This document shows positions 3,936 through 35,346 of a stretch of 55,093 nt of DNA, piece after piece. A program made the position numbers and the translations under genes. Location of the stretch: IMG/VR virus record IMGVR_UViG_3300045993_000169, positions 1-55,093 of that record, one strand, 5' to 3'. The DNA is from a virus. Taxonomy: Duplodnaviria; Caudoviricetes. Position 1 is the stretch's first letter; each line of letters opens with the position of its first letter. Below the pieces are notes generated by a model. That model was given only the letters and a program-made list of their open reading frames with translations. It was not told the origin of the DNA and did no database searches.

Positions 3936-3960
3936 ATTATAGTCCGCGAATTTCGTGCGT
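3936..3960 (-). promoter_or_regulatory. variant copy of phage promoter motif upstream of the nuclease-RNAP operon
   Basis: ACGCAC-N13-TATAAT, same spacing as the other copies. Confidence 0.55.
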
Positions 3961-3968
3961 GATAATAC

Positions 3969-4475
3969 TTATTCTTCAACAACCCGGAACTCCTGTCCTG
4001 TAGGGAACACATAGGTCCTGTTGAGTGTTGCTATTGCAATCTCCCTGTCGAGCAAACCATACTTGATGGCCGCTTCCCACGAAGTCTCGAAGTGCTCATC
4101 AGTGTGAATCTCAAATATGGGGATGGTGAATCCACGTAGGTCATTGAGGAACTGCTTGTGGTACTTGATTGCAAACCAACGCGGACGCCACATCAAATTG
4201 ATTGCTCTGTTGTCACCTCTTACTCCATTGACGTTGATGGGTGTGTTGAACCTTTCGTTTGCTGGTGGCTCGAGGAAGGCATGAGCGACGATAGGAGCAA
4301 CAGAAAGCGTGACCTGTCGTTTCAGTGTTTCGTGTATCATCCCGATCTTGTATGCGCCAGACTGATTCTCTGACGGATGCATGACTCGCCCTGTGTCCTC
4401 ATTCCGAACAATCCCCATATCACTCACTGAGTAGTTGGGGAAGCCCAAATCTTCTAGGGTCACTTTACGTTCCAT
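3969..4475 (-). CDS. NUMOD4/HNH-like endonuclease, probably with degenerate HNH site
   Basis: YSVSDMGIVRN (NUMOD4-like); VAHAF..INVNGVRGDNRAINLMW lacks the usual His; GAAAGGAG RBS before 4475. Confidence 0.6.
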   Translation of the reverse strand: MERKVTLEDLGFPNYSVSDMGIVRNEDTGRVMHPSENQSGAYKIGMIHETLKRQVTLSVAPIVAHAFLEPPANERFNTPINVNGVRGDNRAINLMWRPRWFAIKYHKQFLNDLRGFTIPIFEIHTDEHFETSWEAAIKYGLLDREIAIATLNRTYVFPTGQEFRVVEE

Positions 4476-4493
4476 GGTGCTCCTTTCCATCAC

Positions 4494-4821
4494 TTTAAGT
4501 ATTTAAGTATTAACTCCATTATTTCGTCAAAAGAAAAACTTCATATACAGACCTTAATACTTATTCCCTATATGCATTATAAGTATTAAAGAAGAGATTC
4601 TGAGAAAGTATTAGGGCTGTTTTTGACAGATTTGGCAGAGGCGCTTTTTGGTATAATGCCTGCTCAGAGGCTTATAGCCCCTTTTTTGCTCTGCCAAATC
4701 TGAAATGGTTTTTTTTCGACCCCATTATACGTAGTCTAGAAACCAGTATTAATACGTAAAAAGAGAGGCTCGGGAAAGACCTCTCTTCAAAACCATTTCA
4801 GATTTGTCCTCAGATTTGTCC
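4494..4821. other. AT-rich intergenic region with nested inverted repeats, candidate replication origin
   Basis: IRs 4554-4564/4579-4589, 4627-4640/4689-4702, 4695-4712/4789-4806; CAGATTTG core 4 times. Confidence 0.5.
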
Positions 4822-5988
4822 TCAGAAGGTGACTCCGAAGCTACTTTCATTGAAGTTCTTCTTTCCCGACAAGGACTTTGTGATCGCCTGATCTATCACA
4901 GAGTCAGACTTTAATACGTAATAATACAGGTTTGTATACTGTGTATTTAGCCTGTCTATGCGTCCGTGGGCTTGATGCCAGTTCTTGTAAGAATATGGCA
5001 GACTATAGAACACCATAGCGTCAGTCTCTACACAGTTCCACCCCTCACTTCCGGCAACATACTGGACAATGTACACCCAAGAATCTGTGTCGGGAATATC
5101 CTCATGCTTGTGGCCACTCCATTCAGCTAGGGGGACTTCCCCAGCAAGAGTGAGAAGTTGGTCGCGCTCTACGTTTAGGTTGTAGAACACAATCAACTTC
5201 GGATGCTTTTCCAAGAGGCTACGGACGGCTTGGACTCTCGACCAATCAGAGTTGACTACCTTCCGCATTAGGTGGAACATCTCAGCAACATCCTTGATAG
5301 GACGCTCTTCATAGACATGCCATCTTTGTTTGAGGACTTGGTTGAACTTCTCAACATCATAGTTCACATGGACATCTTCTTCATGCCTGAGGGTTTGTCT
5401 CATGTATGGCATTTCGACGAGGATGTCGTTCCGAAGCCTGACCAACCTTCCGACATTGACGTAACGATCGACCTTAGGGAATTTTGAATAGTTGTTGAAG
5501 ATAACGTGCTCGCGCTTGAACTCTGTCCGATTCTTATAAAAGCCATTAGCGACGAATACGGGGATGTAGTCGAGCCAATTATCTCCGGGGGTTGCGCTAA
5601 GAAGAATCCAGCGATTGCGCTTTGCAATCTTGATAAAGGCTTTGGCCCAAGCTCCTGAGCCCACAAGTCTTTGTTCATCAAAGATGAAGAACGCATCAAC
5701 TACCTCCGCGTAGTTTTGGATGTTGTTCCAACTGTCGATAGTCAACACCCCAGCAACAGTTGCGTCCTTAGTCTTTCCCACCCCATATGCAGCGAACTCC
5801 CCCTGCCAGTCAAGAGAGTCACGCTTCTTAGCCGTTGTGATGACATACACATCTTTAGGCGCTTCTGCCTTCATGTAGTATGCCACAGCAGTCATCGATT
5901 TACCTGTGCCGACACCGCCCCACAATATGGAGCCGTTCCGCAACTTCTCGACAGCCACTTGCTGATGTGGATACAGCTCCAATTTCAT
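4822..5988 (-). CDS. SF2 (SNF2/DEAD-like) helicase
   Basis: GVGTGKS, FDEQR, SATP and QAHGRIDR motifs. Confidence 0.9.
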
Positions 5989-5990
5989 GG

Positions 5991-6332
5991 CTACTCCTTT
6001 CTATTGAGTTCCGGCCATGCAGAACTATCTATCGATATGAAGACACCTATTAGATCGGCAGACTCAATGACCATTGAATCTTCATTAATCACCAGATTGT
6101 TTAATGTGACATGCACATTTAGACTCGTCAAGTTGTACACGGTGCTAATTTCTAATGAGATCTCTCCAGTTTCCTCATCACGTCCGAACAAACCAGCCAT
6201 ACCAATCCGTTCGGTATAACCGCCGTTCCCAACAGGTATGGTGTCTTTCCTCATCGAGATAGCACCCGGAAGAATAAGACGTCCGTCTAGGGTTTGCTTA
6301 CCCTCAATAGCTACAACTCTTCGTGTCATCAC
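5991..6332 (-). CDS. hypothetical protein
   Basis: ORF with AGGAGGAG RBS, tightly packed. Confidence 0.65.
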
Positions 6333-6341
6333 TCCTCCTTT

Positions 6342-6656
6342 CTAAATTCGGATTTCTCCTTGTGGACCTTCATTACGCCAATCTTCAAATGGGATGAAAC
6401 GACGTCCAGCTTTTCGTTCTTCATCTCGATAGTCTCGCCATGTGTTCATATCGACATCATATTGATTGATTGGAACCGAAGACTTTGGAGTATGGACCCA
6501 GACGTTCTCGTCGATGTCGTACTCGTAGTTCTTGCCGACTCTCTTATCGAGAGTCGTGACGTCGGTTCCACAACTGACACACGCGACGATCAGTTCGATA
6601 TTGTCTGTGATTCCAGCAGTGATAATGTTGTGTCGGCAGGTTTCAGGATTTGTCAC
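6342..6656 (-). CDS. hypothetical protein, CxH/CxxC zinc-ribbon-like
   Basis: CRH..CVSC; overlaps upstream stop. Confidence 0.6.
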   Translation of the reverse strand: MTNPETCRHNIITAGITDNIELIVACVSCGTDVTTLDKRVGKNYEYDIDENVWVHTPKSSVPINQYDVDMNTWRDYRDEERKAGRRFIPFEDWRNEGPQGEIRI

Positions 6657-6967
6657 AGGTTCACCTCATGCTCTGGTTCTGGATCGGGTCCGAACCATTC
6701 GTATGGCTCTTTGGTGTTGTATCTGTTCCGACGAAGAATGGAGTTCGCAGCATCGAGTTCTTGCTCATACACCTCGACGTTCTGGACATCCTTCTGGAAC
6801 AGTTTGAGTGGATCTGGTCGATGAGGCCTATCCATTGCACCCTTACGAAGCTTAGGCTTTTGTTTCTTGATCAAGACCTCTACGACCCGTTCCCATTGCC
6901 AGTCATCAACCTTCTCGCCGAGTAGGCCTTCTAGATCCTCACGAGTCATTTGTATTTTGTGGTCCAC
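6653..6967 (-). CDS. hypothetical protein
   Basis: ORF in coupled minus-strand string. Confidence 0.6.
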   Translation of the reverse strand: MDHKIQMTREDLEGLLGEKVDDWQWERVVEVLIKKQKPKLRKGAMDRPHRPDPLKLFQKDVQNVEVYEQELDAANSILRRNRYNTKEPYEWFGPDPEPEHEVNL

Positions 6968-7226
6968 GTTTTTTCATCCCCTTCTCTTTGTCTATGAGTT
7001 CCTTACGTCGAGCAGAGTGCTTCCACTCAAAGCTTCGACCCATACGATCGTTGATCAGATCTAGTTCTTTGACGTCCCATGGGTCAATCTCGAGACAAGG
7101 AAAGCGAGAAGTCTTGTTGACACGATGCTTACTCGGTGCACCGTGGTTGTCACAAGTCCATGTTCGCCCCACAAGAGAATATGAGCAGTTGATTGTTGCT
7201 CCAAGCTTTACCGCCATAACGGCCAC
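6939..7226 (-). CDS. hypothetical protein
   Basis: ORF in coupled string; Cys/His residues. Confidence 0.55.
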   Translation of the reverse strand: MAVMAVKLGATINCSYSLVGRTWTCDNHGAPSKHRVNKTSRFPCLEIDPWDVKELDLINDRMGRSFEWKHSARRKELIDKEKGMKKRGPQNTNDS

Positions 7227-7435
7227 CTGTGCTCTCGTCTTTGTTTAAGCAATGTGTCGAAGTGTATCATTGACCGTTCACGCTGATCTTTAGCTGCGAA
7301 CTGCTCAACAATTTGGTTGTATCTGACTTCGATTTCCAGTCTCAGTTTTTCAACGTCACTGACGACTTTCTTTTTAGCTGCGCGTCGCTTGATGTAATCG
7401 GATCTCTGTTTACTGCTCATCACTCCGCCCCTCAA
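7208..7435 (-). CDS. hypothetical protein
   Basis: ORF in coupled string; start may be 7420. Confidence 0.55.
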   Translation of the reverse strand: MRGGVMSSKQRSDYIKRRAAKKKVVSDVEKLRLEIEVRYNQIVEQFAAKDQRERSMIHFDTLLKQRREHRWPLWR

Positions 7436-7625: not shown

Positions 7626-7634
7626 GATCTCCCC

Positions 7635-7838: not shown

Positions 7839-7846
7839 TACTCCCC

Positions 7847-8029: not shown

Positions 8030-8053
8030 AATTCCTCCAGTGTTAAAAATGGC

Positions 8054-8087
8054 AAAACCTAAAGCCCTTGTGTTAAGGGCCGTAGGT
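8054..8087 (-). terminator. cassette-type intrinsic terminator
   Basis: ACCUA-CG-GCCCUU/AAGGGC-UU-UAGGU followed by UUU. Confidence 0.7.
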
Positions 8088-8094
8088 CTGAAGA

Positions 8095-8358
8095 CTACTT
8101 CTTGTAGTAGTGTTGAGCAATGTCGTAGAATGCAAATTGCATCTTGCGGTATTCGTTGCGTTCTTTTCCACTGATTGAACTGTCATTCACCTTTGCGTTC
8201 ACTCGAGCAGCGTCAGCTTTCCATGCCTCTACGGTTCCGTATTTTGCGGAAGCCATATGGCCGTTGAGCATAAGGTGGTCGGTGATCTTCTTGGAGAATG
8301 CGATCGCAGTGAAACTAGCGGCAATAAGTGCGTAAGCAACAATCTTGTCTGGTTTCAT
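8095..8358 (-). CDS. cassette gene, small membrane protein
   Basis: GAAAGG RBS, N-terminal hydrophobic helix; flanked by promoter and terminator. Confidence 0.7.
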   Translation of the reverse strand: MKPDKIVAYALIAASFTAIAFSKKITDHLMLNGHMASAKYGTVEAWKADAARVNAKVNDSSISGKERNEYRKMQFAFYDIAQHYYKK

Positions 8359-8383
8359 GCCAATACCTTTCGTAGGGGTCTTC

Positions 8384-8408
8384 ATTATAGGCAAGGTTTT
8401 TCCTACGA
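8384..8408 (-). promoter_or_regulatory. phage promoter motif
   Basis: TCGTAG-N13-TATAATGA. Confidence 0.75.
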
Positions 8409-8415
8409 GTTTGAC

Positions 8416-8447: not shown

Positions 8448-8464
8448 CCTACGCCAGAAGCGTA

Positions 8465-8754: not shown

Positions 8755-9042
8755 CTACTTCCTCACAATTTCTTGTGCGGCATCGGCGGCGACGGTCAGG
8801 TAAGTTCCATCGCTCAAGGCGTAGATGAAGTTCCCGGCTTTGGTCTGGTCATTGATCCATCCGACGATCTCGTCAGCGTGCTCGTTCCATGCTGCTACGT
8901 CGACGTTATACTGTTTGTTGGTATAGACGACGACGGCAACGAAGGCGGCAACGCTTCCGGCGATGATGGAGGCGGCAATGATGTCCTCAGAGTGGTTACT
9001 CATCCAGCTCTTGAGCTTCTGGCTCTTGGTTGGGGTGGTCAT
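8755..9042 (-). CDS. cassette gene, single-TM membrane protein
   Basis: hydrophobic IIAASIIAGSVAAFVAVVVY; GAAAGG RBS. Confidence 0.7.
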   Translation of the reverse strand: MTTPTKSQKLKSWMSNHSEDIIAASIIAGSVAAFVAVVVYTNKQYNVDVAAWNEHADEIVGWINDQTKAGNFIYALSDGTYLTVAADAAQEIVRK

Positions 9043-9079
9043 TTCGATTTCCTTTCAATTGGTCTGTGTGAAGGGTCTC

Positions 9080-9104
9080 ATTATAGGGGAGGATTTTCCT
9101 GCGA
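9080..9104 (-). promoter_or_regulatory. phage promoter motif
   Basis: TCGCAG-N13-TATAATGAGA. Confidence 0.8.
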
Positions 9105-10103: not shown

Positions 10104-10107
10104 GTCG

Positions 10108-24383: not shown

Positions 24384-24408
24384 AATTTTCGTCCTCAATT
24401 CAAAAGAG

Positions 24409-24442
24409 AAAACCTAAAGCCCGGGTTAGGGGCTGTCGGTTT
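24409..24442 (-). terminator. cassette-type terminator
   Basis: + strand AAAACCTAAAGCCC..GGGCT..GGTTT. Confidence 0.7.
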
Positions 24443-24453: not shown

Positions 24454-24717
24454 TCAGTCTTTCTTGGTGTGGGGAAACGAGCTGATCTGCTCGAAGGCGT
24501 CGAGGATCGTATCAAACTTATCGTCGGTCCAGTCTTCTGCCTTATCTGATATCATCTCTCCGATCACAAACGCGCCGATGTAAAGTTGCACGACTTGGCG
24601 CTTCTTATCAGTGACGATGTTTTGATGGATGAGGGTAATGATAACAGCAGTAACACTGTATCCGACTACTCGTCGAGTAATCTTCTTGGCTAGAGCAATC
24701 TTCTGTTTCTTAGTCAT
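24454..24717 (-). CDS. cassette gene, membrane protein
   Basis: two hydrophobic segments; own promoter and terminator. Confidence 0.7.
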   Translation of the reverse strand: MTKKQKIALAKKITRRVVGYSVTAVIITLIHQNIVTDKKRQVVQLYIGAFVIGEMISDKAEDWTDDKFDTILDAFEQISSFPHTKKD

Positions 24718-24740
24718 GATGTTCCTTCCATAGGGGTCTC

Positions 24741-24765
24741 ATTATAGGGGGCGTAATTCTTGCGT
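24741..24765 (-). promoter_or_regulatory. phage promoter motif
   Basis: ACGCAA-N13-TATAATGAGA. Confidence 0.75.
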
Positions 24766-27816: not shown

Positions 27817-28110
27817 TCAGATTTTGTAAAGCGCGGAATCAAATATGGATTGAGCGTGGAACACACCTTGGTCCATGTTCTTGCTATGGCTGTGTGCTCC
27901 CTTGTGACCATTCCGACGAAGACAGGAACGTACGATGTCGCAGTCCCGATCAACCTCGTTGTTCTCGATCTTGATCTCGACGATCCCATTCATCTGGAAA
28001 CCGATCATCGAGGGAATGCCTTCCAAATATGCCGTGAGGTCCGTGTAAGACTCGAACTCTCTAGGCATCTGGATAGCATTGTCGTGGAAGTCGAGTCTTA
28101 CTTTGAACAT
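27817..28110 (-). CDS. hypothetical protein
   Basis: GGGGA RBS before MFKVRL. Confidence 0.55.
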   Translation of the reverse strand: MFKVRLDFHDNAIQMPREFESYTDLTAYLEGIPSMIGFQMNGIVEIKIENNEVDRDCDIVRSCLRRNGHKGAHSHSKNMDQGVFHAQSIFDSALYKI

Positions 28111-28292
28111 TTGATTCCCCGTTCCTTGTCCCACAGATACTGCGAGGCAAGATAGATTGGACTTGGCGTGCAATCTGCACAGAACGACGTAGGGTACTCA
28201 ACACCCAAATATGCACCGCAGCCTTCGCAGTGCTGGATTCGGACGTAGTGTCCCTCACCTGCATACTCGTAGTACGTTTTGTCCTCAGTCAT
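28098..28292 (-). CDS. small zinc-finger protein
   Basis: CEGC..CADC. Confidence 0.6.
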   Translation of the reverse strand: MTEDKTYYEYAGEGHYVRIQHCEGCGAYLGVEYPTSFCADCTPSPIYLASQYLWDKERGIKCSK

Positions 28293-28494
28293 AATTGACA
28301 GTTCCTTTGTAGTGAAGTGGGCATGGAATATAGCCACGATTGTCAGGCACACCAAGTCGATGCCAGATGCTCACCGGAGGATTGAACACCCAATCCGGGA
28401 GCCACGAGAATGCTGTAAACCAGACGATGCAACACGTCGGGAATCCATAGTGTCGTCCCTGTCGAATATGGAAGCGCAGGTTGAGAAACTTCAT
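28285..28494 (-). CDS. small hypothetical protein
   Basis: G.HYGFP.CC..GYIPC..H. Confidence 0.6.
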   Translation of the reverse strand: MKFLNLRFHIRQGRHYGFPTCCIVWFTAFSWLPDWVFNPPVSIWHRLGVPDNRGYIPCPLHYKGTVNYD

Positions 28495-28528
28495 AACACT
28501 TTTCCCTTCAAAGCAATTTGGCAAAGAC

Positions 28529-28561
28529 AAAAGAAGAGCCCGTGTTAGGGGCTCCTCTCTT
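28529..28561 (-). terminator. terminator hairpin
   Basis: GAGCCC/GGGCUC hairpin followed by UUCUUUU. Confidence 0.6.
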
Positions 28562-28582
28562 GGGACGATCAGGGTGGGGTGG

Positions 28583-28777
28583 TCAGGACTCGATGGTCTC
28601 GACGACGGTCTCCACGATCTCTTCGATGGAGGAGGAATCGGACTTCAGCTTGACAACGAGCACGGCGACGACGGTGACAGCGACTGCTGCGACGGCGACG
28701 CGAATGGCGTTGGTCTTGGTGAAGAGGGACTTCTTCTCGACGGGGAGGGTGGTGATGTCGGGAGTGTTCTCGGACAT
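28583..28777 (-). CDS. cassette gene, single-TM membrane protein
   Basis: VAVAAVAVTVVAVLVV; GAAAGG RBS. Confidence 0.7.
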   Translation of the reverse strand: MSENTPDITTLPVEKKSLFTKTNAIRVAVAAVAVTVVAVLVVKLKSDSSSIEEIVETVVETIES

Positions 28778-28805
28778 GGTGGTACCTTTCTGGTTGATGG
28801 GTCTC

Positions 28806-28830
28806 ATTATAGACCCGGTATTTCTTGCGA
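28806..28830 (-). promoter_or_regulatory. phage promoter motif
   Basis: TCGCAA-N13-TATAATGAGA. Confidence 0.8.
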
Positions 28831-28836
28831 GGTGGA

Positions 28837-29292
28837 TCAGGAAATCGACGAAGCCAGATCCAGAACTGTGAACATACGACGCTCTGCATTTCCAGCATTG
28901 ATCTGGGCAGCATCAAGTTTCATCCGAAGTCGCCCGATCTCATCCTCAAGATCGTCACGATGCGCTTGAGTTGACTTGAGTTCCTTCTCGAGTTCGTGGA
29001 TGCGAACCTCAGACGCAGATATGGTGACCGTGTTCTTGGTCCCTCTCTGAGTGTACGTACGCTTGGCCTTACCAACTGCAATGGCAGTCTGGCGCTTGGA
29101 TCGAGTCTTACTGGGGTACGCCTCAGGATTCTCCTTCCGCGCCTCAGCAATCGTTCTCATAGGCTGTCCAGTCAACTTCGACCGAAGGGCCTCGAGAGCC
29201 TCATCGCTCTTCTTCTCCTCAGCACGCTTCGCTCTGTTTGCTTCCAGAACGGCAGCGTGAGCGACTGGATCTTTTGGATGTCCACTAGGCAT
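28837..29292 (-). CDS. basic coiled-coil protein
   Basis: AAGGAG RBS before MPSGHP; parallels the 11686 protein. Confidence 0.65.
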   Translation of the reverse strand: MPSGHPKDPVAHAAVLEANRAKRAEEKKSDEALEALRSKLTGQPMRTIAEARKENPEAYPSKTRSKRQTAIAVGKAKRTYTQRGTKNTVTISASEVRIHELEKELKSTQAHRDDLEDEIGRLRMKLDAAQINAGNAERRMFTVLDLASSIS

Positions 29293-29318
29293 AACGGGTC
29301 TCCTTATATTTGGGTGAA

Positions 29319-29537
29319 TCAGTGAACTTGCGTTTCCTTCAGCGAAAAAGTGCCGTACTGAATCCACCAGTCAGCATCTTTGCCTTGCATGTATCGATGA
29401 CCAGCCTTATGTTTTCCATCGACTTCATCCTGAATCCATCGTTTTGCAGCCGTCACGTCAGTAGCGAGTGCTCTAAAAACAGCAAAACCATTCATGGAGT
29501 CGACGTCGTGCTGTTCAATAACAATTACGGTCTCCAT
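29319..29537 (-). CDS. hypothetical protein
   Basis: GAAAGGA RBS. Confidence 0.65.
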   Translation of the reverse strand: METVIVIEQHDVDSMNGFAVFRALATDVTAAKRWIQDEVDGKHKAGHRYMQGKDADWWIQYGTFSLKETQVH

Positions 29538-29547
29538 CAGAATCCTT

Positions 29548-30333
29548 TCAGTGAATCCGGTGGTAATCCCTTACCGGAGCAACTCGGAACTCAATTGCAA
29601 TGCAAGGACGCTGGTCATCAGACAGAGTTCCAGTGAACTTGCACTCTAACGGCTTCTCACTTGTCCAACCGACTTCATCAGAATATGCCGTCGTGGCAAG
29701 TCCGATGTTGTCGTAGAAGTCGCCGAGAGATGCGTAGCCATCGCTCAGCATTGTGTAATTGATGTCGTTCTGAGCCTTCTTGAGCGTCTCCATGTCACTC
29801 GTGAAATATCGCCCAGAGAAAGAGTCGAAACAGAGGACTTCGCCGTTTCCTGTGATGATGACCTCACGATCACCGACAGGATTCCGACGAACCTGATCTT
29901 GCATGACTTCATCGTGGATCTTCTGTTCCTTGCCCTGACCGATTTTCTCGACGACCTTTTCCTTGTATTCGGTGAAGGCCTTCTCGGAGATGGAGTATGC
30001 GGCAGCCACCGCAGCAGCCCGACGTGTTCCGATACGGTTGGCGCCGATGATGCACACTACGGTCGCGACAACCGTACCAATCGCTGGGATGTACTCCTTC
30101 CATACGAGGACGATCTTCTCCTTGGGCTCCAGAATATGGGGCGGGTTGCCATTTGCACTCTTGCTGATTCGATACTGCTCATCTGCGATGATCTCGACAG
30201 CCTTGATAGTTGCCGTCCCCGTAAGGAAAGCCACACCAAGCGTTCCTGTGACAGCGACAGCAGTAAGAATCGCAGGCGAGTGGTCAATCGCCAGTTTCTC
30301 AACTCGTTTTGCTACCTCAACAAACGTAGTCAT
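29548..30333 (-). CDS. conserved membrane-associated protein (DUF6353-like)
   Basis: HSPAILT TM, AAAY, SGRYF, GW; paralog of 22671..23579. Confidence 0.7.
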   Translation of the reverse strand: MTTFVEVAKRVEKLAIDHSPAILTAVAVTGTLGVAFLTGTATIKAVEIIADEQYRISKSANGNPPHILEPKEKIVLVWKEYIPAIGTVVATVVCIIGANRIGTRRAAAVAAAYSISEKAFTEYKEKVVEKIGQGKEQKIHDEVMQDQVRRNPVGDREVIITGNGEVLCFDSFSGRYFTSDMETLKKAQNDINYTMLSDGYASLGDFYDNIGLATTAYSDEVGWTSEKPLECKFTGTLSDDQRPCIAIEFRVAPVRDYHRIH

Positions 30334-30574
30334 GCTTGTGCTCCTCTAGTTCGTGTTCAGCATCGATAGAAGCGTTGATGCCATCAACGCCCTCGAAATA
30401 TCGGTTCTTCTCAAGACACTTTCTCACAAAGAAAGCCGATGCTGCGATGATGACAAAGAGAAAAGCCACGCCGTCAAATTTCTCACGAATGACGAGTGAC
30501 AGAAGGACTCCCATCATAGCGGCAATATAAACTATGCAGGCGTAGAAACGTCCACGCATAACAAAACCTTTCAC
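30317..30574 (-). CDS. two-TM membrane protein
   Basis: two hydrophobic helices; GTGA overlap with deaminase stop. Confidence 0.6.
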   Translation of the reverse strand: MKGFVMRGRFYACIVYIAAMMGVLLSLVIREKFDGVAFLFVIIAASAFFVRKCLEKNRYFEGVDGINASIDAEHELEEHKHDYVC

Positions 30575-30978
30575 TTCGAATTCGGGTAGATCGTCCTTAC
30601 AATCCCAGAACCTGCGATGAGTTTTGCGCAATCTTTGCAAGGCTCACAGGTGACATAGATAGAGGCACCAACAAGTGATGTCCTCGCATAGAGAAGGGCG
30701 TTGGCTTCTGCATGGATGGATACGCAGTTGTCGTATGCCGATAAGGCACTGACGTCATCGTAAGACATCCGACCTCGTGGGCAATGACCAGCAAGACATC
30801 CCGGCATCCCAGAGGGAGCACCGTTATATCCTGTCGAGAGAATGCGATGACCGGCATCGACAATAACAGAGCCTACTTGTCTTCGGCGACAGTCGGCTCG
30901 TAGTGAAACTGCGTCAGCGAGGTTCAGGAAGTATGCGTCCCATGGTGGGCGATAGTCATCCACGACGACGCATCTCAC
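30571..30978 (-). CDS. dCMP deaminase
   Basis: GYNG, HAEAN, PCxxC motifs. Confidence 0.9.
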   Translation of the reverse strand: MRCVVVDDYRPPWDAYFLNLADAVSLRADCRRRQVGSVIVDAGHRILSTGYNGAPSGMPGCLAGHCPRGRMSYDDVSALSAYDNCVSIHAEANALLYARTSLVGASIYVTCEPCKDCAKLIAGSGIVRTIYPNSK

Positions 30979-31078
30979 GGACGAAGATCCAGATGAGCCA
31001 TAGACCTCCGGTGATGGTAGTCAGGACGACATCGAGGATGAAGTTCCAGAAGCCGTAGCGACGACGATTGTTTGCCAT
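30956..31078 (-). CDS. small membrane protein (40 aa, not in ORF track)
   Basis: MANNRRRYGFWNFILDVVLTTITGGLWLIWIFVREMRRRG; AAGGAG RBS. Confidence 0.7.
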   Translation of the reverse strand: MANNRRRYGFWNFILDVVLTTITGGLWLIWIFVREMRRRG

Positions 31079-31108
31079 TGTGGTTCTCCTTCAGAGTTGG
31101 TTAGGCAG

Positions 31109-31208
31109 AAAAAAATGAGAACCTATGACTACATCTAGTAGGACGTGTTCGTTGCAGTAACGGACAACGTCAGACTCATTGCGGTAACGGGCCCATAGGG
31201 TTCTCATT
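31109..31208 (-). ncRNA. candidate promoter-driven small RNA with two CCGUUACY loops
   Basis: terminal IR AATGAGAACC(C)TATG followed by U7; 15-nt internal repeat. Confidence 0.6.
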
Positions 31209-31230
31209 ATAGGGGGTGACTTTCTTGCGA
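31206..31230 (-). promoter_or_regulatory. phage promoter motif
   Basis: TCGCAA-N13-TATAATGAGA. Confidence 0.8.
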
Positions 31231-31261
31231 GGTCAAAAATGAAACCACATACATTGCTCGC

Positions 31262-31354
31262 GTGTACCATCAAAGACGATTTTTGCACGGAGTTAGGTGT
31301 GCCATTATAAATGACTTTTGCACCGCAGTGTACCATCAAAGACGATTTTTGCAC
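31262..31354. repeat. three 27-bp direct repeats inside a candidate small RNA (31236-31370)
   Basis: 31262-31288 and 31328-31354 identical, 31297-31323 diverged. Confidence 0.8.
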
Positions 31355-31371
31355 TGACTATGTGATTCCAA

Positions 31372-31464
31372 ATAATGAGAGAGAAATCTGATATGGTTCG
31401 GTGTCGTAGTGTCACGTCTCCGAGTGGTGCCGTAGTGTCACGGCTCCGATTTCTCTCTCATTAT
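31372..31464 (-). ncRNA. candidate small RNA with twin hairpins closed by a 17-bp IR
   Basis: IR 31372-31388/31448-31464; 24-nt repeats 31400-31423 and 31426-31449. Confidence 0.6.
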
Positions 31465-31484
31465 AGGGGGTGAAATTCTCGCGA
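31460..31484 (-). promoter_or_regulatory. phage promoter motif
   Basis: TCGCGA-N13-TATAATGAGA. Confidence 0.8.
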
Positions 31485-31486
31485 GG

Positions 31487-31882
31487 TTAAACGGTCCCCA
31501 ATCCGATGATCTCGTAATGAAGACCTTGAAGATGATCGGTATGCCCATTCAGATGCTTTGACATTACCGTCACAGCGTTGCCGGTCTCTTCCGCACAATC
31601 TTTGACTGTCTCCCAAATTTGATTCGTCTCAAGACACTTGACGAACTTATGGGCATACCCACCAAGATTCACATTGTTCGAGACTGTTATGACCGGTGCT
31701 ATAACGGGTGCTATAACAGGCGCGATGACAGGAGCAACCGTGTTAACGATCTGGGTTGAAGTCTGATTAAACTTCACGAAAAGCAAAGTCCCAGCGACGG
31801 TAACTGCAGCAGTGACACCGATCGCAATGTAGACGTTCTTGTTCTCTTGGAAATGCGTCTTGATCTTGTCACGCTGGGCCAT
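31487..31882 (-). CDS. membrane-anchored protein with NUMOD1-like DNA-binding domain
   Basis: TM helix, (APVI)x4 linker, VKCLETNQIWETVKDCAE; start uncertain. Confidence 0.6.
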   Translation of the reverse strand: MAQRDKIKTHFQENKNVYIAIGVTAAVTVAGTLLFVKFNQTSTQIVNTVAPVIAPVIAPVIAPVITVSNNVNLGGYAHKFVKCLETNQIWETVKDCAEETGNAVTVMSKHLNGHTDHLQGLHYEIIGLGTV

Positions 31883-31925
31883 GTTCAACAATGTATCTTC
31901 CCCTTCGGTTTTGGGTGGGCGAGGC

Positions 31926-32064
31926 AAAAAAATGAGATCGAGGTAAACGCTCCAACTAAAAGCGTTTCGTTAACTAGCTGTTTGTACCTTGCTAGCACAT
32001 CAGGTAGGATTCGAACCTACACATTAGTGTCTTGATCTCCGGGTTTGCACCAGAGCTCTCTCTC
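31926..32064 (-). ncRNA. candidate structured small RNA containing a tRNA T-arm
   Basis: GUAGG-UUCGAAU-CCUAC at 32004-32020, further hairpins, closing stem followed by U7. Confidence 0.6.
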
Positions 32065-32089
32065 ATTATAGGACGAGTAATTCCTGCGA
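32065..32089 (-). promoter_or_regulatory. phage promoter motif
   Basis: TCGCAG-N13-TATAATGAGA. Confidence 0.8.
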
Positions 32090-32389
32090 GGGATAGCGAA
32101 TCATGAAGGCTGGTTTACACTTTCCGCGCTTTGAAAAACCAAACTTCTCGTAGAGTTCCTCAAGTTGAGTATCGTTCAATGTAGTTTGTATTGGGTGGCC
32201 ATACCGCTGAGCAGAGAGCGTAAGTGTAAAACCGTGCTTATCAGCATACTGAATGACCTCGTCTAAAACAGCATTCGCTTGCCCCTGATGCCTAACAGGA
32301 GACCACAGACTCGACACAGAATATAGATTAGGTTCGATGTAGATGAGTCTGACTGAAGCTTGACCGTTCTTAAACTCTATGGGTTTCAT
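32066..32389 (-). CDS. GNAT-family acetyltransferase
   Basis: RHQGQA motif A, LYEKFGF. Confidence 0.75.
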   Translation of the reverse strand: MKPIEFKNGQASVRLIYIEPNLYSVSSLWSPVRHQGQANAVLDEVIQYADKHGFTLTLSAQRYGHPIQTTLNDTQLEELYEKFGFSKRGKCKPAFMIRYPSQELLVL

Positions 32390-32413
32390 GTAGTCTCCTT
32401 ACACGAATATGAC

Positions 32414-32446
32414 AAACCTTAAGCCCCAGTAAAGGGGCGTCGGGTT
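32414..32446 (-). terminator. cassette-type terminator
   Basis: GCCCC/GGGGC hairpin within AACC/GGUU. Confidence 0.65.
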
Positions 32447-32630
32447 AGAGGTCCAATGCTTCAAGTGCGGTTTTGAACTTGGATACGGTCTTGCTCGTCT
32501 TCTTCTTCATGTCGTCCAACTCGGCCTGCATCTTCTTGGCTCCAACCAGCATAGTTACTAGTGTGGCGCTCGAGACGATGAGGCTGAGTGACGAGACAGT
32601 GATGAGGGCGACGGTAGTCGATGTATTCAT
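32445..32630 (-). CDS. cassette gene, small membrane protein
   Basis: GAAAGG RBS, hydrophobic N-terminus. Confidence 0.7.
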   Translation of the reverse strand: MNTSTTVALITVSSLSLIVSSATLVTMLVGAKKMQAELDDMKKKTSKTVSKFKTALEALDL

Positions 32631-32661
32631 TTCAATGCCTTTCGTAGGGCGTATGGGTCTC

Positions 32662-32686
32662 ATTATAGGGCATGTTTTTCCTACGA
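32662..32686 (-). promoter_or_regulatory. phage promoter motif
   Basis: TCGTAG-N13-TATAATGAGA. Confidence 0.8.
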
Positions 32687-32693
32687 ATATGGC

Positions 32694-32727
32694 AGACCTA
32701 AAGGCCCGGTTAGGGGTCCTTAGTTCT
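32694..32727 (-). terminator. cassette-type terminator
   Basis: + strand AGACCTAAAGGCCC..GGGTCCTTAGTTCT. Confidence 0.65.
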
Positions 32728-32734
32728 TGAGCGT

Positions 32735-32914
32735 TCAGTCAACGAGGTTGTAGAACTCTTCGAACAGGTCGTGGTCCTTGAGGAACTGGTTGTGCTGGGA
32801 AATTCCGTTCTTCATCAGTACACAGGCCGTGGTGGTAACGACGAGTGCGGTGACGAGGATTCCGGTCTTGTGGGCAACAACGAAGTTCTTCGCTTTGACG
32901 GCGATGTCGTTCAT
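32735..32914 (-). CDS. cassette gene, small membrane protein
   Basis: AAGGAG RBS; paralog of 33258..33461. Confidence 0.7.
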   Translation of the reverse strand: MNDIAVKAKNFVVAHKTGILVTALVVTTTACVLMKNGISQHNQFLKDHDLFEEFYNLVD

Positions 32915-32944
32915 GGTCTTCTCCTTGTGGTGGTGAATGGTCTC

Positions 32945-32969
32945 ATTAGAGGACATGAAAAACTCGCGA
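32945..32969 (-). promoter_or_regulatory. phage promoter motif
   Basis: TCGCGA-N13-TCTAATGAGA. Confidence 0.8.
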
Positions 32970-32973
32970 AGTC

Positions 32974-33009
32974 AAAACCTAAACCACGTGAATATGGTGT
33001 GGTGTAGGT
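32974..33009 (-). terminator. cassette-type terminator (GAATATGG-loop subtype)
   Basis: + strand AAAACCTAAACCACGTGAATATGGTGTGGTGTAGGT. Confidence 0.7.
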
Positions 33010-33019
33010 CCTGAGGTCA

Positions 33020-33157
33020 TCAGTTGATGATGATTTCGTATGAACGAGTTCCGTCGAGATGTGTGATGGTGTTGATCTTCTGGCCTTTTCGAGCTGCGTG
33101 AGCAAGCTGTAAAGAGCCGTAAAAGTCAGCCATCTTAGTAACGAGGTACTTCTTCAT
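33020..33157 (-). CDS. cassette gene, 45 aa (not in ORF track)
   Basis: MKKYLVTKMADFYGSLQLAHAARKGQKINTITHLDGTRSYEIIIN; AAGGAG RBS. Confidence 0.7.
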   Translation of the reverse strand: MKKYLVTKMADFYGSLQLAHAARKGQKINTITHLDGTRSYEIIIN

Positions 33158-33185
33158 GGTCTTCTCCTTTAATGGATGTGATCTC

Positions 33186-33210
33186 ATTAAAGGGCAGGTA
33201 AAACCTGCGA
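33186..33210 (-). promoter_or_regulatory. phage promoter motif
   Basis: TCGCAG-N13-TTTAATGAGA. Confidence 0.8.
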
Positions 33211-33214
33211 GGGC

Positions 33215-33250
33215 AAAACCTAAACCGCGTGAATATGGTGCGGTGTAGGT
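33215..33250 (-). terminator. cassette-type terminator (GAATATGG-loop subtype)
   Basis: near-identical to 32974-33009. Confidence 0.7.
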
Positions 33251-33257
33251 CCTGAGG

Positions 33258-33461
33258 TCAGGCGTTCAGTTCGGCGAGCATTTCCGGGTTGTAGTACTCC
33301 ATCAGGTCGATTCCCTTTTCGGTGAGGAACTCGTCGAACATCTTCTTGTTGTACTGTTGTAGGGCGATCGCTGCGATAGCGACGGCTCCTAGAACATATG
33401 CAGCCTTGTGGGATGTGACGTTGTTCTTCGCTTTGAGGGCGACGGACTTGACTTTGTTCAT
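33258..33461 (-). CDS. cassette gene, small membrane protein
   Basis: KAKN.V..HK, TM, EFL.E..L.EYY. Confidence 0.7.
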   Translation of the reverse strand: MNKVKSVALKAKNNVTSHKAAYVLGAVAIAAIALQQYNKKMFDEFLTEKGIDLMEYYNPEMLAELNA

Positions 33462-33495
33462 GGGGAAATTCCTTTCGGTTGTGAATCATGGTCTC

Positions 33496-33520
33496 ATTAG
33501 AGGGCAGGAATATGCTGCGA
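33496..33520 (-). promoter_or_regulatory. phage promoter motif
   Basis: TCGCAG-N13-TCTAATGAGA. Confidence 0.8.
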
Positions 33521-33523
33521 AGG

Positions 33524-33562
33524 AAAAAACCTAAAGCCCTTGTAATAAGGGCCTGTCGGTTT
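33524..33562 (-). terminator. cassette-type terminator
   Basis: GCCCUU/AAGGGC hairpin followed by UUUAGGUUUUUU. Confidence 0.7.
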
Positions 33563-33570
33563 GGGTGAAT

Positions 33571-33840
33571 CTACTTGGAGGTGAGTTTCGCAACCTTCGC
33601 GAAGAAGATCTTATCGTACTCGCCGGTGGAGCCGTCGGAATCATCCACGACGTTGTTGTACTCTCCACGCAGGCTCTCGAAGAACATCTCTTTACTAACC
33701 TTCCGGACGATCATTGGATCGATGTCGGAATGGTTCTTAACGAGTTCTTCGGTGGAGCCTACATAGGATACGTACATCACGGTGGGGATGGCGGCGGCAG
33801 CAAGAGCGATGACTGACAAGATGATCTTGGTTTTGGTCAT
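33571..33840 (-). CDS. cassette gene, N-terminal TM protein
   Basis: AAAGGA RBS. Confidence 0.7.
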   Translation of the reverse strand: MTKTKIILSVIALAAAAIPTVMYVSYVGSTEELVKNHSDIDPMIVRKVSKEMFFESLRGEYNNVVDDSDGSTGEYDKIFFAKVAKLTSK

Positions 33841-33867
33841 GGTACTGTCCTTTGTTAGTAGGGGTTC

Positions 33868-33892
33868 ATTATAGGGCATGAAAATCCTGCGA
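33868..33892 (-). promoter_or_regulatory. phage promoter motif
   Basis: TCGCAG-N13-TATAATGA. Confidence 0.8.
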
Positions 33893-33896
33893 AGCC

Positions 33897-33932
33897 AAAA
33901 CCTAAACCACGTGAATATGGTGCGGCGTAGGT
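33897..33932 (-). terminator. cassette-type terminator (GAATATGG-loop subtype)
   Basis: + strand AAAACCTAAACCACGTGAATATGGTGCGGCGTAGGT. Confidence 0.7.
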
Positions 33933-33939
33933 CTTGAGA

Positions 33940-34188
33940 CTACTTCGTGTTCAGAAGCAGTTTGTATGCATCGAATTGGGCTTCATCCATGGCAACCACG
34001 GCCCAACCGTAGTCATCCCGAAGCTCACGGATAAACTCGTTAACGACATCGGCCTTGACCGGAGCGGTGGGCATACCAAATTTCTTGGTAAGCACTACTC
34101 CGATCACGACTCCTGCAATAGCGGTAGTGGTGAGGATGGGAACTAGGTTCTCGTGGACTGCCTTTTTGAAGTTCTTGACGGTTAACAT
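33940..34188 (-). CDS. cassette gene, single-TM protein
   Basis: GAAAGGA RBS. Confidence 0.7.
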   Translation of the reverse strand: MLTVKNFKKAVHENLVPILTTTAIAGVVIGVVLTKKFGMPTAPVKADVVNEFIRELRDDYGWAVVAMDEAQFDAYKLLLNTK

Positions 34189-34216
34189 GTCTGTTCCTTT
34201 CTTGGGGGTTGGTCTC

Positions 34217-34241
34217 ATTAGAGGGGGTGAATATGCTGCGA
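34217..34241 (-). promoter_or_regulatory. phage promoter motif
   Basis: TCGCAG-N13-TCTAATGAGA. Confidence 0.8.
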
Positions 34242-34245
34242 AGGC

Positions 34246-34278
34246 AAACCTTAAGCCCCGGTTAGGGGGCGTCAGGTT
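34246..34278 (-). terminator. cassette-type terminator
   Basis: + strand AAACCTTAAGCCCC..GGGGC..AGGTT. Confidence 0.65.
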
Positions 34279-34284
34279 AGTGGA

Positions 34285-34524
34285 CTACTTGTTAAGTCGG
34301 CGTTCTGTGAACTTCACGTTCAACCCGAAGAGAGTGCGCTCTTGGCGTCGGAGGACTTCGCGGTAGCCGTCGATGATGGACTTGAGGTGATGGGTCATAC
34401 CAGTGACATAGATGCTGTCTCTGATGTAAACCATCTTCTCGAGTTGGTCGGCGGAACTGCGAAGGCTCTCAACGACGCTGTTAAGCTCGTCTTTTTCTTC
34501 GGGTGTAAGGACGTAGGGGTTCAT
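34285..34524 (-). CDS. cassette gene, hypothetical protein
   Basis: GAAGGA RBS. Confidence 0.7.
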   Translation of the reverse strand: MNPYVLTPEEKDELNSVVESLRSSADQLEKMVYIRDSIYVTGMTHHLKSIIDGYREVLRRQERTLFGLNVKFTERRLNK

Positions 34525-34551
34525 GGGAATTCCTTCCTTGTAGGGGGTCTC

Positions 34552-34576
34552 ATTATAGGGAAGGAAAACCCTGCGA
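34552..34576 (-). promoter_or_regulatory. phage promoter motif
   Basis: TCGCAG-N13-TATAATGAGA. Confidence 0.8.
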
Positions 34577-34580
34577 AGGC

Positions 34581-34615
34581 AAACCTAAACAGCGTGAATA
34601 TGGTGCTGGTTAGGT
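34581..34615 (-). terminator. cassette-type terminator (GAATATGG-loop subtype)
   Basis: + strand AAACCTAAACAGCGTGAATATGGTGCTGGTTAGGT. Confidence 0.7.
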
Positions 34616-34621
34616 CTGAGA

Positions 34622-34801
34622 TCAGTGGCGGGGTCGGTGCCATCCTTTGTACGTTCTACTGATGCGGCGATAGCGATCGATGGTCGCAACCTGTTCGAGT
34701 TCGAAGTCGTCAAAGAACACCTTGTTGGCGTCAAATTCTGCTTCGTATCGAATACGTTGTGCGTCGTCAAGCTCTTTCGCTCGGCGTTCGTAGATGTCCA
34801 T
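34622..34801 (-). CDS. cassette gene, hypothetical protein
   Basis: GAAAGGA RBS before MDIYERR. Confidence 0.7.
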   Translation of the reverse strand: MDIYERRAKELDDAQRIRYEAEFDANKVFFDDFELEQVATIDRYRRISRTYKGWHRPRH

Positions 34802-34828
34802 GATGTTTCCTTTCGGTCGATGGGTCTC

Positions 34829-34853
34829 ATTAAAGGGCAGGTAAAACCTGCGA
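34829..34853 (-). promoter_or_regulatory. phage promoter motif
   Basis: TCGCAG-N13-TTTAATGAGA. Confidence 0.8.
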
Positions 34854-34935
34854 CTTCGACCCAAAAGTTCCTCCGCGGGATTTTTTGGATTGCAAATTTT
34901 GAGAGGCCTTGTAAAAGAAACGACCCACAAAAATA

Positions 34936-34972
34936 GAGGGCGCGCAAGAGTTTTTAGTTCTTACACGCCCTC
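34936..34972 (-). terminator. terminator hairpin
   Basis: GAGGGCG..AAGA/UCUU..CGCCCUC followed by UAUUUUU. Confidence 0.65.
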
Positions 34973-35006
34973 CACCTTCGAGGGCTGCCTGTAATAGGTC
35001 AGCGTG

Positions 35007-35294
35007 TCACTTAATGAATTTCATCAAGAAGGGGACGGCTTTGGTGGTCACGATGTTGGATCGTTCGAATATGGTAAACATCCCTCCGATGAACACATTA
35101 CCAATAACGATGAGTACAGTGTTGGGGTTCAGCTCCTCAGGCTTTTCTTCGGCTATGAGGTTGCTGAGCGTCTTGACTGCTTTCAGGGTTTCTTTGTAAT
35201 TGGTGTCATCGGGAGTGAGGTTTCTCAGATCCCAAACGAATTGGTCGCGAGCCTCCATAAGCTGAGTCTTCTCAGTTTTGGTCCAGAAGGACAT
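35007..35294 (-). CDS. cassette gene, membrane protein
   Basis: AAGGAG RBS; C-terminal TM and FE..V.TKA. Confidence 0.7.
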   Translation of the reverse strand: MSFWTKTEKTQLMEARDQFVWDLRNLTPDDTNYKETLKAVKTLSNLIAEEKPEELNPNTVLIVIGNVFIGGMFTIFERSNIVTTKAVPFLMKFIK

Positions 35295-35321
35295 GCTTAC
35301 TCCTTAATAGTAGGGGGTCTC

Positions 35322-35346
35322 ATTATAGGCGAGGTTTTACTCGCGA
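35322..35346 (-). promoter_or_regulatory. phage promoter motif
   Basis: TCGCGA-N13-TATAATGAGA. Confidence 0.8.

Follow-up and report, generated by a model that had tools for sequence, protein, structure and literature searches.

A repeated 30-bp element as the candidate promoter of a YonO-like two-barrel RNA polymerase in an actinophage/Firmicutes-phage lineage

The virus record IMGVR_UViG_3300045993_000169 of IMG/VR, which in its entirety forms the window analysed here (55,093 bases, classed as linear and estimated to be about 93% complete), carries a strand-specific element of about 30 bp that is repeated before the small genes of its early/middle arm. The same genome encodes, at its right end in phage orientation, a 910-amino-acid protein with the signatures of a single-chain two-barrel RNA polymerase (RNAP). 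Our best explanation, to which we assign a probability of about 0.7, is that the element is a promoter read by this polymerase. An earlier note made from the sequence alone had drawn the same connection, and it is supported at that level through the co-occurrence of element and enzyme and through a pattern of conservation unlike that of sigma-70 promoters; any T7-type nature for the polymerase was not borne out, the enzyme being YonO-like by its signatures.

The pattern WCGYRV-N13-THTAAT, described in the earlier note as occurring 17 times, returned exactly those copies on the minus strand and none on the plus strand, against a chance expectation of 0.27 (maximum 2 in 100 shuffles); the count of 17 applies to the sequence in hand, a contig about 93% complete. 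The hexamer variants were as claimed, with TATAAT at 12 sites, TCTAAT at three (32945, 33496 and 34217) and TTTAAT at two (33186 and 34829). The 13-nt spacer was likewise invariant, as a relaxed pattern allowed spacings of 8-19 and gave 17 coding-strand matches at 13 and none at any other. The structural region was confirmed to be free of copies, its best score with a position weight matrix (PWM) built from the window being 10.9 bits compared to 40.6-57.2 bits for 16 of the sites, and the plus strand held nothing above 10 bits. Other parts of the description needed amending. GAGA follows the hexamer at 14 of the 17 sites and is replaced at 3936 (AGAT), 8384 (GAAG) and 33868 (GAAC). The view of the copies as one uniform family holds for the 16 strong sites, hereafter the general class, but not for 3936, an outlier at 15.2 bits that has neither CC nor GAGA and belongs to a separate sub-class, the operon class. 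The core motif stands as written, but the conserved block is longer, extending over about 30 bp (TCGCAgG-W5-C-N4-CC-TnTAAT-GAGAcC) with an additional invariant C. Numbered from the first base after the hexamer, TCGCA occupies -25 to -21 and is followed by an A/T-rich stretch, the invariant C at -13, T-TAAT at -6 to -1 and then GAGA.

All window sites lie in the early/middle arm. Thirteen small open reading frames (ORFs) of 45-95 amino acids (aa) have their Shine-Dalgarno sequence and start codon 24-38 nt past a hexamer, three further sites stand directly before structured non-coding units, and the site at 3936, 58 nt before VRR-Nuc, heads the VRR-Nuc, Cas4 exonuclease and polymerase genes. Downstream of general-class sites the leader is conserved across genera (the window, Kenosha, Bilo and several metagenomic loci) and reads GAGACCCCTAC followed by GAAAGGA, the Shine-Dalgarno sequence, which suggests a 5'-untranslated-region (5'-UTR) element or a downstream promoter contact. 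We considered whether the AT of the hexamer and G at +1 make up a leaderless ATG as a general feature and rejected this, since the operon class and Lactococcus phage 1706 do not have it.

The 910-aa protein matches PHROG 4291, "RNA-dependent RNA polymerase", from end to end (E=0), and the Pfam RdRP family weakly around residues 505-593 (E 0.015, below the Pfam cut-off); 12 of 40 members of the polymerase family match that Pfam family at E<=0.01. It contains GADFDGD, the signature of the multisubunit RNAP catalytic loop. All six genomes compared have this loop, and an alignment of 40 sequences shows no variation at D514, F515, D516, G517 or D518. A C-terminal helix-turn-helix (HTH) at about residues 875-907 is recognised as Sigma70_r4_2 in 40/40 family members and as Sigma70_r4 in 32/40, and two more HTH motifs lie near the N-terminus. 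By these signatures the protein appears to be a YonO/crAss-like two-barrel polymerase and not a T7-like one. A search of the ESM Atlas returned the protein's own family alone, and the family numbers at least 8,000 proteins in the protein database. The preprint describing the phage supercluster to which this lineage belongs makes the same prediction for the family (DxDGD, HHpred to RdRP at 95.68%, N- and C-terminal HTHs) and treats the polymerase as a signature gene of the lineage, while the word "promoter" is absent from its text (10.1101/842583). Among the large ORFs of the window we saw no T7-like RNAP; since the sole polymerase candidate has the signatures of the two-barrel type, the element does not belong to the T7-type promoter class, which is read by an enzyme of the Pol I fold. 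No sigma factor or other transcription-factor domain was detected in the 30 non-structural ORFs screened, many of which are without annotation, and the 910-aa protein is the sole HTH-bearing protein identified in the window. Elsewhere in the family, a polymerase homologue on a 97% complete contig (G002:C1:54920-57622, L219) has one in-frame TAG, which could be a sequencing error, a pseudogene mutation or a recoded stop.

The earlier note had proposed looking for the motif together with the RNAP gene in relatives, and this check was positive in both directions. Starting from the polymerase, the element was found in 5/5 GenBank relatives and across 80 metagenomic loci. With the window PWM, Streptomyces phage Bilo has 5 sites and Arthrobacter phage Uzumaki has 6; every one is on the coding strand, and they start right after the holin gene. 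De novo word counts recovered the element as an over-represented word in Gordonia phage Kenosha (CCTATAATGAGACCCCTAC, 7 occurrences), oral phage D_HF5_2C (CCTATAATGA, 7-10) and Lactococcus phage 1706 (CTATAGTAGA, 10), and the aligned sites of all relatives share one architecture, on the same strand, with the same spacing and at a matching place in the genome. At a threshold of >=11 bits, a pooled PWM gave coding-strand versus other-strand counts of 17/0 in the window, 14/0 in 1706, 10/0 in Kenosha, 9/2 in D_HF5_2C, 7/0 in Bilo and 8/1 in Uzumaki, compared to 0.2 in the shuffled window strand, and none of the matches in these six genomes fell within the structural module. The 80 metagenomic polymerase loci (861,575 bases) held 85 coding-strand versus 5 other-strand sites, which peaked 500-1000 nt upstream of the polymerase ORF (30 sites) and never occurred downstream of it. 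The 13-nt spacing was again preferred over any other, with 27 versus at most 1 in the six relatives and 33 versus at most 5 in the 80 loci. When one 51-nt site was compared by blastn with 50,697 phage records, 97 were returned (Gordonia 52, Streptomyces 38, Erwinia 5, Rhodococcus 2), of which the 92 from Gordonia, Streptomyces and Rhodococcus belong to polymerase-bearing clusters.

Starting from the motif, we used as a control 120 unrelated viral loci (965,543 bases), each with one loose-pattern match, from among the IMG/VR matches listed, most of which were solitary and due to chance. The PWM found no match in 103 of them and one match in 12; two alone (L020 and L124) had five strong sites on the same strand. 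These two have full records of 57.9 and 58.1 kb (97% complete), each with a polymerase gene at its right end and on the strand of the motif (E about 1e-238), whereas three records with chance-level matches, one of them 100% complete, encode none, so that the polymerase was present in 2/2 multi-site contigs versus 0/3. The contig G001 (39% GC) carries 12 coding-strand sites and none on the other strand, all between the tail genes and the polymerase. We found no relative that has the motif and no polymerase. The tie between this candidate promoter family and the polymerase-bearing lineage is well supported.

Several properties of the element are at odds with a sigma-70 promoter, and the argument made on this point in the earlier note gained strength from the rigid spacing, the conservation within the hexamer, the sequence downstream of it and the lack of -35/-10 enrichment. 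A generic -35/-10 scan of the window by thirds gave 23, 11 and 6 hits against 22.8, 17.9 and 13.7 expected, and flagged 2/17 sites; no -35-like hexamer stands at 16-18 bp, the sole conserved upstream box being 13 bp away. In the -10 hexamer of sigma-70 promoters, the A at position 2, whose base is flipped out by sigma, and the T at position 6 are best conserved, and the start of transcription, usually a purine, lies 6-8 nt past the hexamer. Our 53 pooled sites showed no variation (53/53) at the C at -13 or at positions 1, 3 and 4 of the hexamer, and position 6 was T in 52, while position 2 was A in 47 (12/17 in the window); in 47 metagenomic general-class sites position 2 was A in 35, G in 8 (TGTAAT), C in 3 and T in 1. 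The bases +1 to +3 were purines at all 53 pooled sites and +4 was a purine at 50, while +6 to +8 were all pyrimidine at 21. In a larger pool of 162 sites, a strong Shine-Dalgarno sequence begins 1-5 nt from the hexamer at 6 and at +6 in 7 more, the clearest cases being G001 34895 (TATAAT-G-AAGGAGGTGAT-AAA-ATG) and 1706 20661; where it abuts the hexamer in this way, the transcript would have to start at or before the first bases past the hexamer. Taken together, the conservation of the element, its spacing and its downstream sequence are not what sigma-70-type recognition would produce.

These data bear on the idea that the sites are ordinary strong early promoters for host sigma-A, with the upstream box and GAGA as an incidental likeness among duplicated cassettes, which we consider highly improbable. 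The hexamer does resemble TATAAT, the sites do precede early-looking small genes, and actinobacterial promoters often have no -35 element. However, the 30-bp architecture and its exact spacing are kept in phages of Streptomyces, Arthrobacter, Gordonia, an oral host and Lactococcus, beyond the reach of cassette duplication; neither a -35 element nor a TG extension is present even in the low-GC phages; and the unenriched scan, the conservation pattern and the downstream pyrimidines are all contrary to it. We also weighed whether the T-rich tail of the terminator conceals a -35 element (TTGnCn, 19 bp from the hexamer) and rejected this, the spacing being too long and the sequence confined to paralogous cassettes.

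The main rival explanation, which we hold to be unlikely, is modelled on the middle promoters of phage T4, in which a -10-like hexamer is combined with a MotA box about one helical turn upstream that replaces the -35 element. The distance from the MotA box to the -10 hexamer is similar to that from TCGCA to the hexamer here, and the geometry is alike. By this account, host RNAP with sigma-A would use the hexamer as a -10 element while a phage protein bound at TCGCA, either the 910-aa HTH protein itself or an unrecognised small protein, would take the place of the -35 contact. Such appropriation would agree with the perfect -10 consensus of 12/17 hexamers, with the sigma-region-4-like and other HTHs of the 910-aa protein and with the intrinsic-terminator-like hairpins that close the units, and conservation throughout the lineage would suit any phage-encoded reader. 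It is difficult to reconcile with G, C or T at position 2 in 12/47 general-class sites while positions 1, 3 and 4 are invariant, the reverse of the sigma-70 pattern, or with pyrimidines at +6 to +8 in 21/53 sites and purines at +1 to +3 in all, or with the Shine-Dalgarno sequences that abut the hexamer. A mere factor would also have no need of the invariant polymerase catalytic loop, and no MotA-, AsiA- or sigma-like domain or gene was seen among the 30 ORFs screened, many of them unannotated.

The three non-coding units (31116-31209, 31367-31463 and 31930-32068, minus strand) bear on where transcription might begin. Each is predicted to form a closed multi-branch fold in which a terminal stem joins the 5' and 3' ends, with folding z-scores of -2.74 for the unit at 31206, -7.29 for that at 31460, whose terminal stem has 16-17 bp, and -3.06 for that at 32065. 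The earlier note had observed that the 3' ends pair with the GAGA region, and complementarity to the 5' GAGA region was indeed present in all three, entering the hexamer by 3 nt (31206), 5 nt (31460) and 3 nt (32065, read from the sequence). This is suggestive of a start inside the hexamer, but the hint is confounded by the U-rich tails, since the tail of a terminator could itself produce part of the complementarity. A search for RNA sequencing runs matching window 28000-36000 returned none. ARAGORN found no tRNA in the window or the five relatives, and Rfam gave no match at E<=1 in 28-36 kb of the window, placing these units outside known families. The unit at 32065 holds a tRNA-like T-arm (GGTTCGAATCC), and similar tRNA-like sequences follow the element in D_HF5_2C (site 20072) and 1706 (site 25472).

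The position of the sites also argues against a role other than that of a promoter. The element might be an operator, a partition-like or a packaging-related site bound by the HTHs of the 910-aa protein, or a 5'-UTR element acting at the RNA level; the three HTH motifs of the protein and the extension of the conserved block into the would-be transcribed sequence GAGACCCCTAC are in keeping with this. We nevertheless give it very little credence, as the sites sit between a terminator-like hairpin and either a Shine-Dalgarno sequence and start codon (24-38 nt) or a structured non-coding RNA, no other promoter candidates are enriched, and the strict strand polarity and the purine run at a fixed distance are promoter-like.

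Returning to the phage polymerase as reader, a number of observations weigh against it. First, 12/17 hexamers match TATAAT perfectly and 74-89% of sites have A at position 2, which makes partial recognition by host sigma-A, most of all of the operon class, conceivable. Second, the units end in a hairpin and U-rich terminator of the kind used by bacterial RNAP. Third, no solved polymerase in the PDB was detectable from the 910-aa protein by sequence or profile. Fourth, with the window-only PWM the IMG/VR polymerase loci L130 and L131 reach 9.7 bits at most, with no match above 14, and 22/55 metagenomic loci with at least 2 kb upstream have no site of >=11 bits 300-2000 nt upstream of the polymerase ORF. 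Fifth, the genomes with the motif all come from a single lineage, which deprives the co-occurrence of phylogenetic independence as evidence. Lastly, the polymerase gene itself lies behind a motif variant, and a model in which the phage polymerase does everything therefore needs the enzyme to be present at infection.

The two sub-classes of site differ mainly past the hexamer. The 47 metagenomic general-class sites have G at +1 in 43 and then C-rich sequence, while the 37 operon-class sites, which precede VRR-Nuc/Cas4/polymerase, share the upstream half and continue with AGAAGG (A at +1 in 29, G at +5 in 33), and of these 37, 32 have A as the second base of the hexamer and 32-35 have purines at +6 to +8. 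In addition to 3936 in the window, operon-class sites were found in Bilo, Uzumaki, D_HF5_2C and G001. All 18 contigs that run at least 4 kb past the polymerase (18/18) continue with same-strand genes and with an ORF of terminase size 2-3 kb downstream. Between the polymerase and this ORF the motif was not found in those contigs (best score 5.8 bits), an arrangement in which the polymerase gene would head the late block after joining of the genome ends. A G-rich element, GGGGAGGGG, common to 13/18 of these contigs (L152-L214), lies 200-1100 nt past the polymerase stop between a small ORF and the left-arm genes and is probably the genome terminus (cos).

The first round of transcription may be started by polymerase delivered in the virion or by host RNAP acting on the operon-class site. 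Host RNAP is favoured by the more sigma-compatible hexamer of the operon class and its purines at +6 to +8. Virion delivery is favoured by the label of the 1706 homologue (orf75), annotated as "structural protein", and by the N-terminus of the polymerase, whose gene adjoins the late block. DUF7211, a 25-residue motif, is present in all six genomes near the N-termini of proteins whose genes neighbour the portal gene; in several head-module proteins it stands some 16 residues from the N-terminus and reads [ED][ED]xhLxHYGxKGMKWG. Residues 3-26 or so of the polymerase form an invariant N-terminal peptide that resembles DUF7211 (hhalign probability 95.5%, E 1.5e-8, compared to 0.06-0.67% in 15 control slices and 20.9% in one), and residues 6-51 have 46% identity to a left-end ORF in two genomes. 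A search of the PDB with the DUF7211 protein found nothing, and a search of NCBIfam was likewise empty. The motif may be a capsid-targeting signal for cargo proteins.

If the phage polymerase is the reader, the element would act as a strand-specific promoter of about 30 bp with fixed geometry and GAGA as its initiating purine run. The HTH modules of the polymerase, two N-terminal and one C-terminal and sigma-region-4-like, would read the upstream boxes as duplex DNA, and the catalytic core would melt the T-TAAT block and start at, or within a few bases of, the G or A that follows. The 16 general-class sites would then drive single-gene units, made up of 13 small ORFs and three structured non-coding RNAs, while the variant site (ACGCA...TATAAT-AGAwGG) would head a VRR-Nuc/Cas4/polymerase operon that runs into the late/structural genes after the ends are joined. 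A bolder version, which we put forward tentatively and hold to be somewhat doubtful, is a one-chain holoenzyme, in which a two-barrel RNAP with sigma-like HTHs at both ends would be loaded into the capsid through DUF7211, ejected with the DNA and able to carry out early transcription with no host factor.

The founding member of the single-chain two-barrel phage RNAPs is YonO of the Bacillus prophage SPbeta, whose promoter and need for extra factors were left undetermined in the text of the 2017 paper (PMC5467207). Like YonO, whose templates are a defined set of phage genes (PMC5467207), the 910-aa protein is a phage-encoded single polypeptide of roughly 100 kDa with a DxDGD catalytic loop, a likeness that rests on PHROG and Pfam RdRP-type signatures; unlike YonO, it comes with a multi-copy 30-bp element before early/middle genes and has HTH modules at both ends. 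Phage P23-45 of Thermus has two two-barrel RNAPs, gp96 in the virion and gp64 outside it, each with its own promoter motif upstream of mapped transcription start sites (PMC10770324). The single-chain two-barrel enzyme, the confinement of the motif to relatives encoding it and the logic of co-occurrence are the same here, whereas the two motifs of P23-45, one AT-rich and one GC-rich, are accompanied by chromatin immunoprecipitation sequencing (ChIP-seq), cappable-seq and crystal structures (PMC10770324). In distinction to P23-45, the present element, known from sequence alone, mimics a -10 box and has its second box exactly 13 bp upstream.

Possible delivery in the virion to transcribe early genes is a feature that the 910-aa polymerase may share with gp66 of phi14:2, a crAss-like phage, and with N4 vRNAP. 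Both of these are much larger and come from podoviruses, and N4 promoters are DNA hairpins. Each T7 promoter is one contiguous element whose geometry is fixed and whose initiating purines form a conserved run; copies precede many genes, and the units end in hairpin terminators. The element resembles them in each of these respects, but the polymerase is not of the T7/Pol I fold, and the element is longer, some 20-25 bp separating its upstream box from the presumed start. We found no published description of the sites in the full-text literature, the papers on Arthrobacter, Gordonia, Microbacterium and Rhodococcus phages or the supercluster preprint, a search that covered main texts.

To the question of how YonO-like two-barrel polymerases find their promoters, the element contributes a concrete 30-bp candidate with C-13, T-6, T-4, A-3 and the CGCA box as its invariant bases. 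Phages of Arthrobacter, Gordonia, Streptomyces and Lactococcus that are cultured with non-pathogenic hosts carry the family, which makes the proposal testable in vitro and in vivo. If it is true, a built-in sigma-region-4-like module could replace a sigma factor, there would be an explanation for the transcription of the "small membrane protein" arrays of these clusters in gene-by-gene units, and a compact orthogonal polymerase/promoter pair for Gram-positive hosts would be at hand. Were the one-chain holoenzyme also true, its at least 8,000 members would place it among the most widespread phage transcription systems.

The window has a GC content of 49.4% and all of its genes on the minus strand. 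In phage orientation, the head and tail genes are followed by the small-gene array, the replication genes, which include single-stranded DNA-binding proteins, and finally VRR-Nuc, Cas4 exonuclease and the 910-aa protein at the right end. As annotated, this layout matches the actinophage/Firmicutes-phage supercluster, whose members include Arthrobacter clusters AM/AU, Gordonia DJ, Streptomyces BI, Rhodococcus CC and Lactococcus phage 1706 (10.1101/842583). Megablast of 20 kb of the window against GenBank phages gave no near DNA relative. The 559-aa ORF in the left-end stretch at window 52936-55093 belongs to PHROG 7502, where its function is unassigned, has DUF7211 twice and is not a terminase. 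Neither a terminase nor an endolysin was identified among the window ORFs screened, which fits the location of the roughly 7% of missing sequence beyond the left contig end. The features are listed below.

Table 1. Features of the window in phage orientation. Scores are bits of the window PWM; "predicted to drive" is judged from position.
Feature	Coordinates	Strand	Score (bits)	Remark
DUF7211 head-module proteins, 132 aa and 559 aa	52541-52939 and 52936-54615	minus		motif twice in the 559-aa protein
Portal	51203-52504			head module
Capsid-protease fusion	49114-51393			head module
General-class promoter-like site	35318..35346	minus	42.7	TCGCGAG...CCTATAAT GAGA; first after tail/lysis genes; predicted to drive ORF 35007-35294 (95 aa)
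General-class site	34825..34853	minus	51.0	TTTAAT; predicted to drive ORF 34622-34801 (59 aa)
General-class site	34548..34576	minus	57.2	predicted to drive ORF 34285-34524 (79 aa)
General-class site	34213..34241	minus	56.2	TCTAAT; predicted to drive ORF 33940-34188 (82 aa)
General-class site	33864..33892	minus	54.2	then GAAC; predicted to drive ORF 33571-33840 (89 aa)
Terminator-like hairpin and TTTAGGTTTTTT tail	33524..33554	minus		after ORF 33571-33840; adjoins the 33496 site
General-class site	33492..33520	minus	49.8	TCTAAT; predicted to drive ORF 33258-33461 (67 aa)
General-class site	33182..33210	minus	49.3	TTTAAT; predicted to drive ORF 33020-33157 (45 aa)
General-class site	32941..32969	minus	54.2	TCTAAT; predicted to drive ORF 32735-32914 (59 aa)
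General-class site	32658..32686	minus	44.9	predicted to drive ORF 32445-32630 (61 aa)
Analogous tails	34580-34589, 34245-34254, 33897-33906, 33215-33224, 32974-32983, 32413-32422	minus		
General-class site	32061..32089	minus	40.6	predicted to drive non-coding unit to about 31930
General-class site	31456..31484	minus	48.4	predicted to drive non-coding unit to about 31367
General-class site	31202..31230	minus	54.2	predicted to drive non-coding unit to about 31116
General-class site	28802..28830	minus	47.6	predicted to drive ORF 28583-28777 (64 aa)
General-class site	24737..24765	minus	44.9	ACGCA upstream box; predicted to drive ORF 24454-24717 (87 aa)
Terminator-like hairpin and TTTAGGTTTT tail	24408..24434	minus		after ORF 24454-24717
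Primase-polymerase	17427-21182			replication genes
General-class site	9076..9104	minus	53.2	predicted to drive ORF 8755-9042 (95 aa)
General-class site	8380..8408	minus	42.4	then GAAG; predicted to drive ORF 8095-8358 (87 aa)
Terminator-like GC hairpin and TTTAGGTTTT tail	8053..8081	minus		after ORF 8095-8358
Helicase	4822-5988			replication genes
Operon-class variant site	3932..3960	minus	15.2	ACGCA...C...TATAAT AGATGG; 18.4 bits with the pooled PWM
VRR-Nuc	3558-3878	minus		
Cas4 exonuclease	3053-3616	minus		
910-aa putative two-barrel (YonO/crAss-like) RNA polymerase	324..3056	minus		PHROG, catalytic loop, HTHs

Many units end in a GC hairpin and a conserved TTTAGGTTTT tail that abuts the next site, and these tails occur 9 times on the coding strand and never on the other. 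The conserved tail sequence is TTTAGGTTT(T) and is present in Uzumaki and Kenosha too; AGG is conserved within the U-tract, which is odd for intrinsic terminators.

Two minor observations concern other parts of the genome. First, the hexamer ATATTC is strongly strand-polar, with coding versus other-strand counts of 54/7 in the window, 57/1 in Kenosha, 14/0 in Bilo and 467/175 in the 80 metagenomic loci, while no bias was seen in Uzumaki and it is reversed in 1706. All three codon phases contain it, with enrichment in the early/middle arm and the highest density at about 15000-40000 of the minus strand; CCATATTY is distributed 27/1 in the window, and RAATAT is nearly missing from the coding strand, with 0 in all of Bilo. 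This polarity may reflect evasion of Type III restriction, a Chi/KOPS-like signal, a primase site or a signal related to the polymerase. Second, the non-structural arm contains a paralogous pair of PHROG 2152 genes on the minus strand, 6 kb apart at 22671-23579 and 29548-30333 (E 6e-79 and 4e-84).

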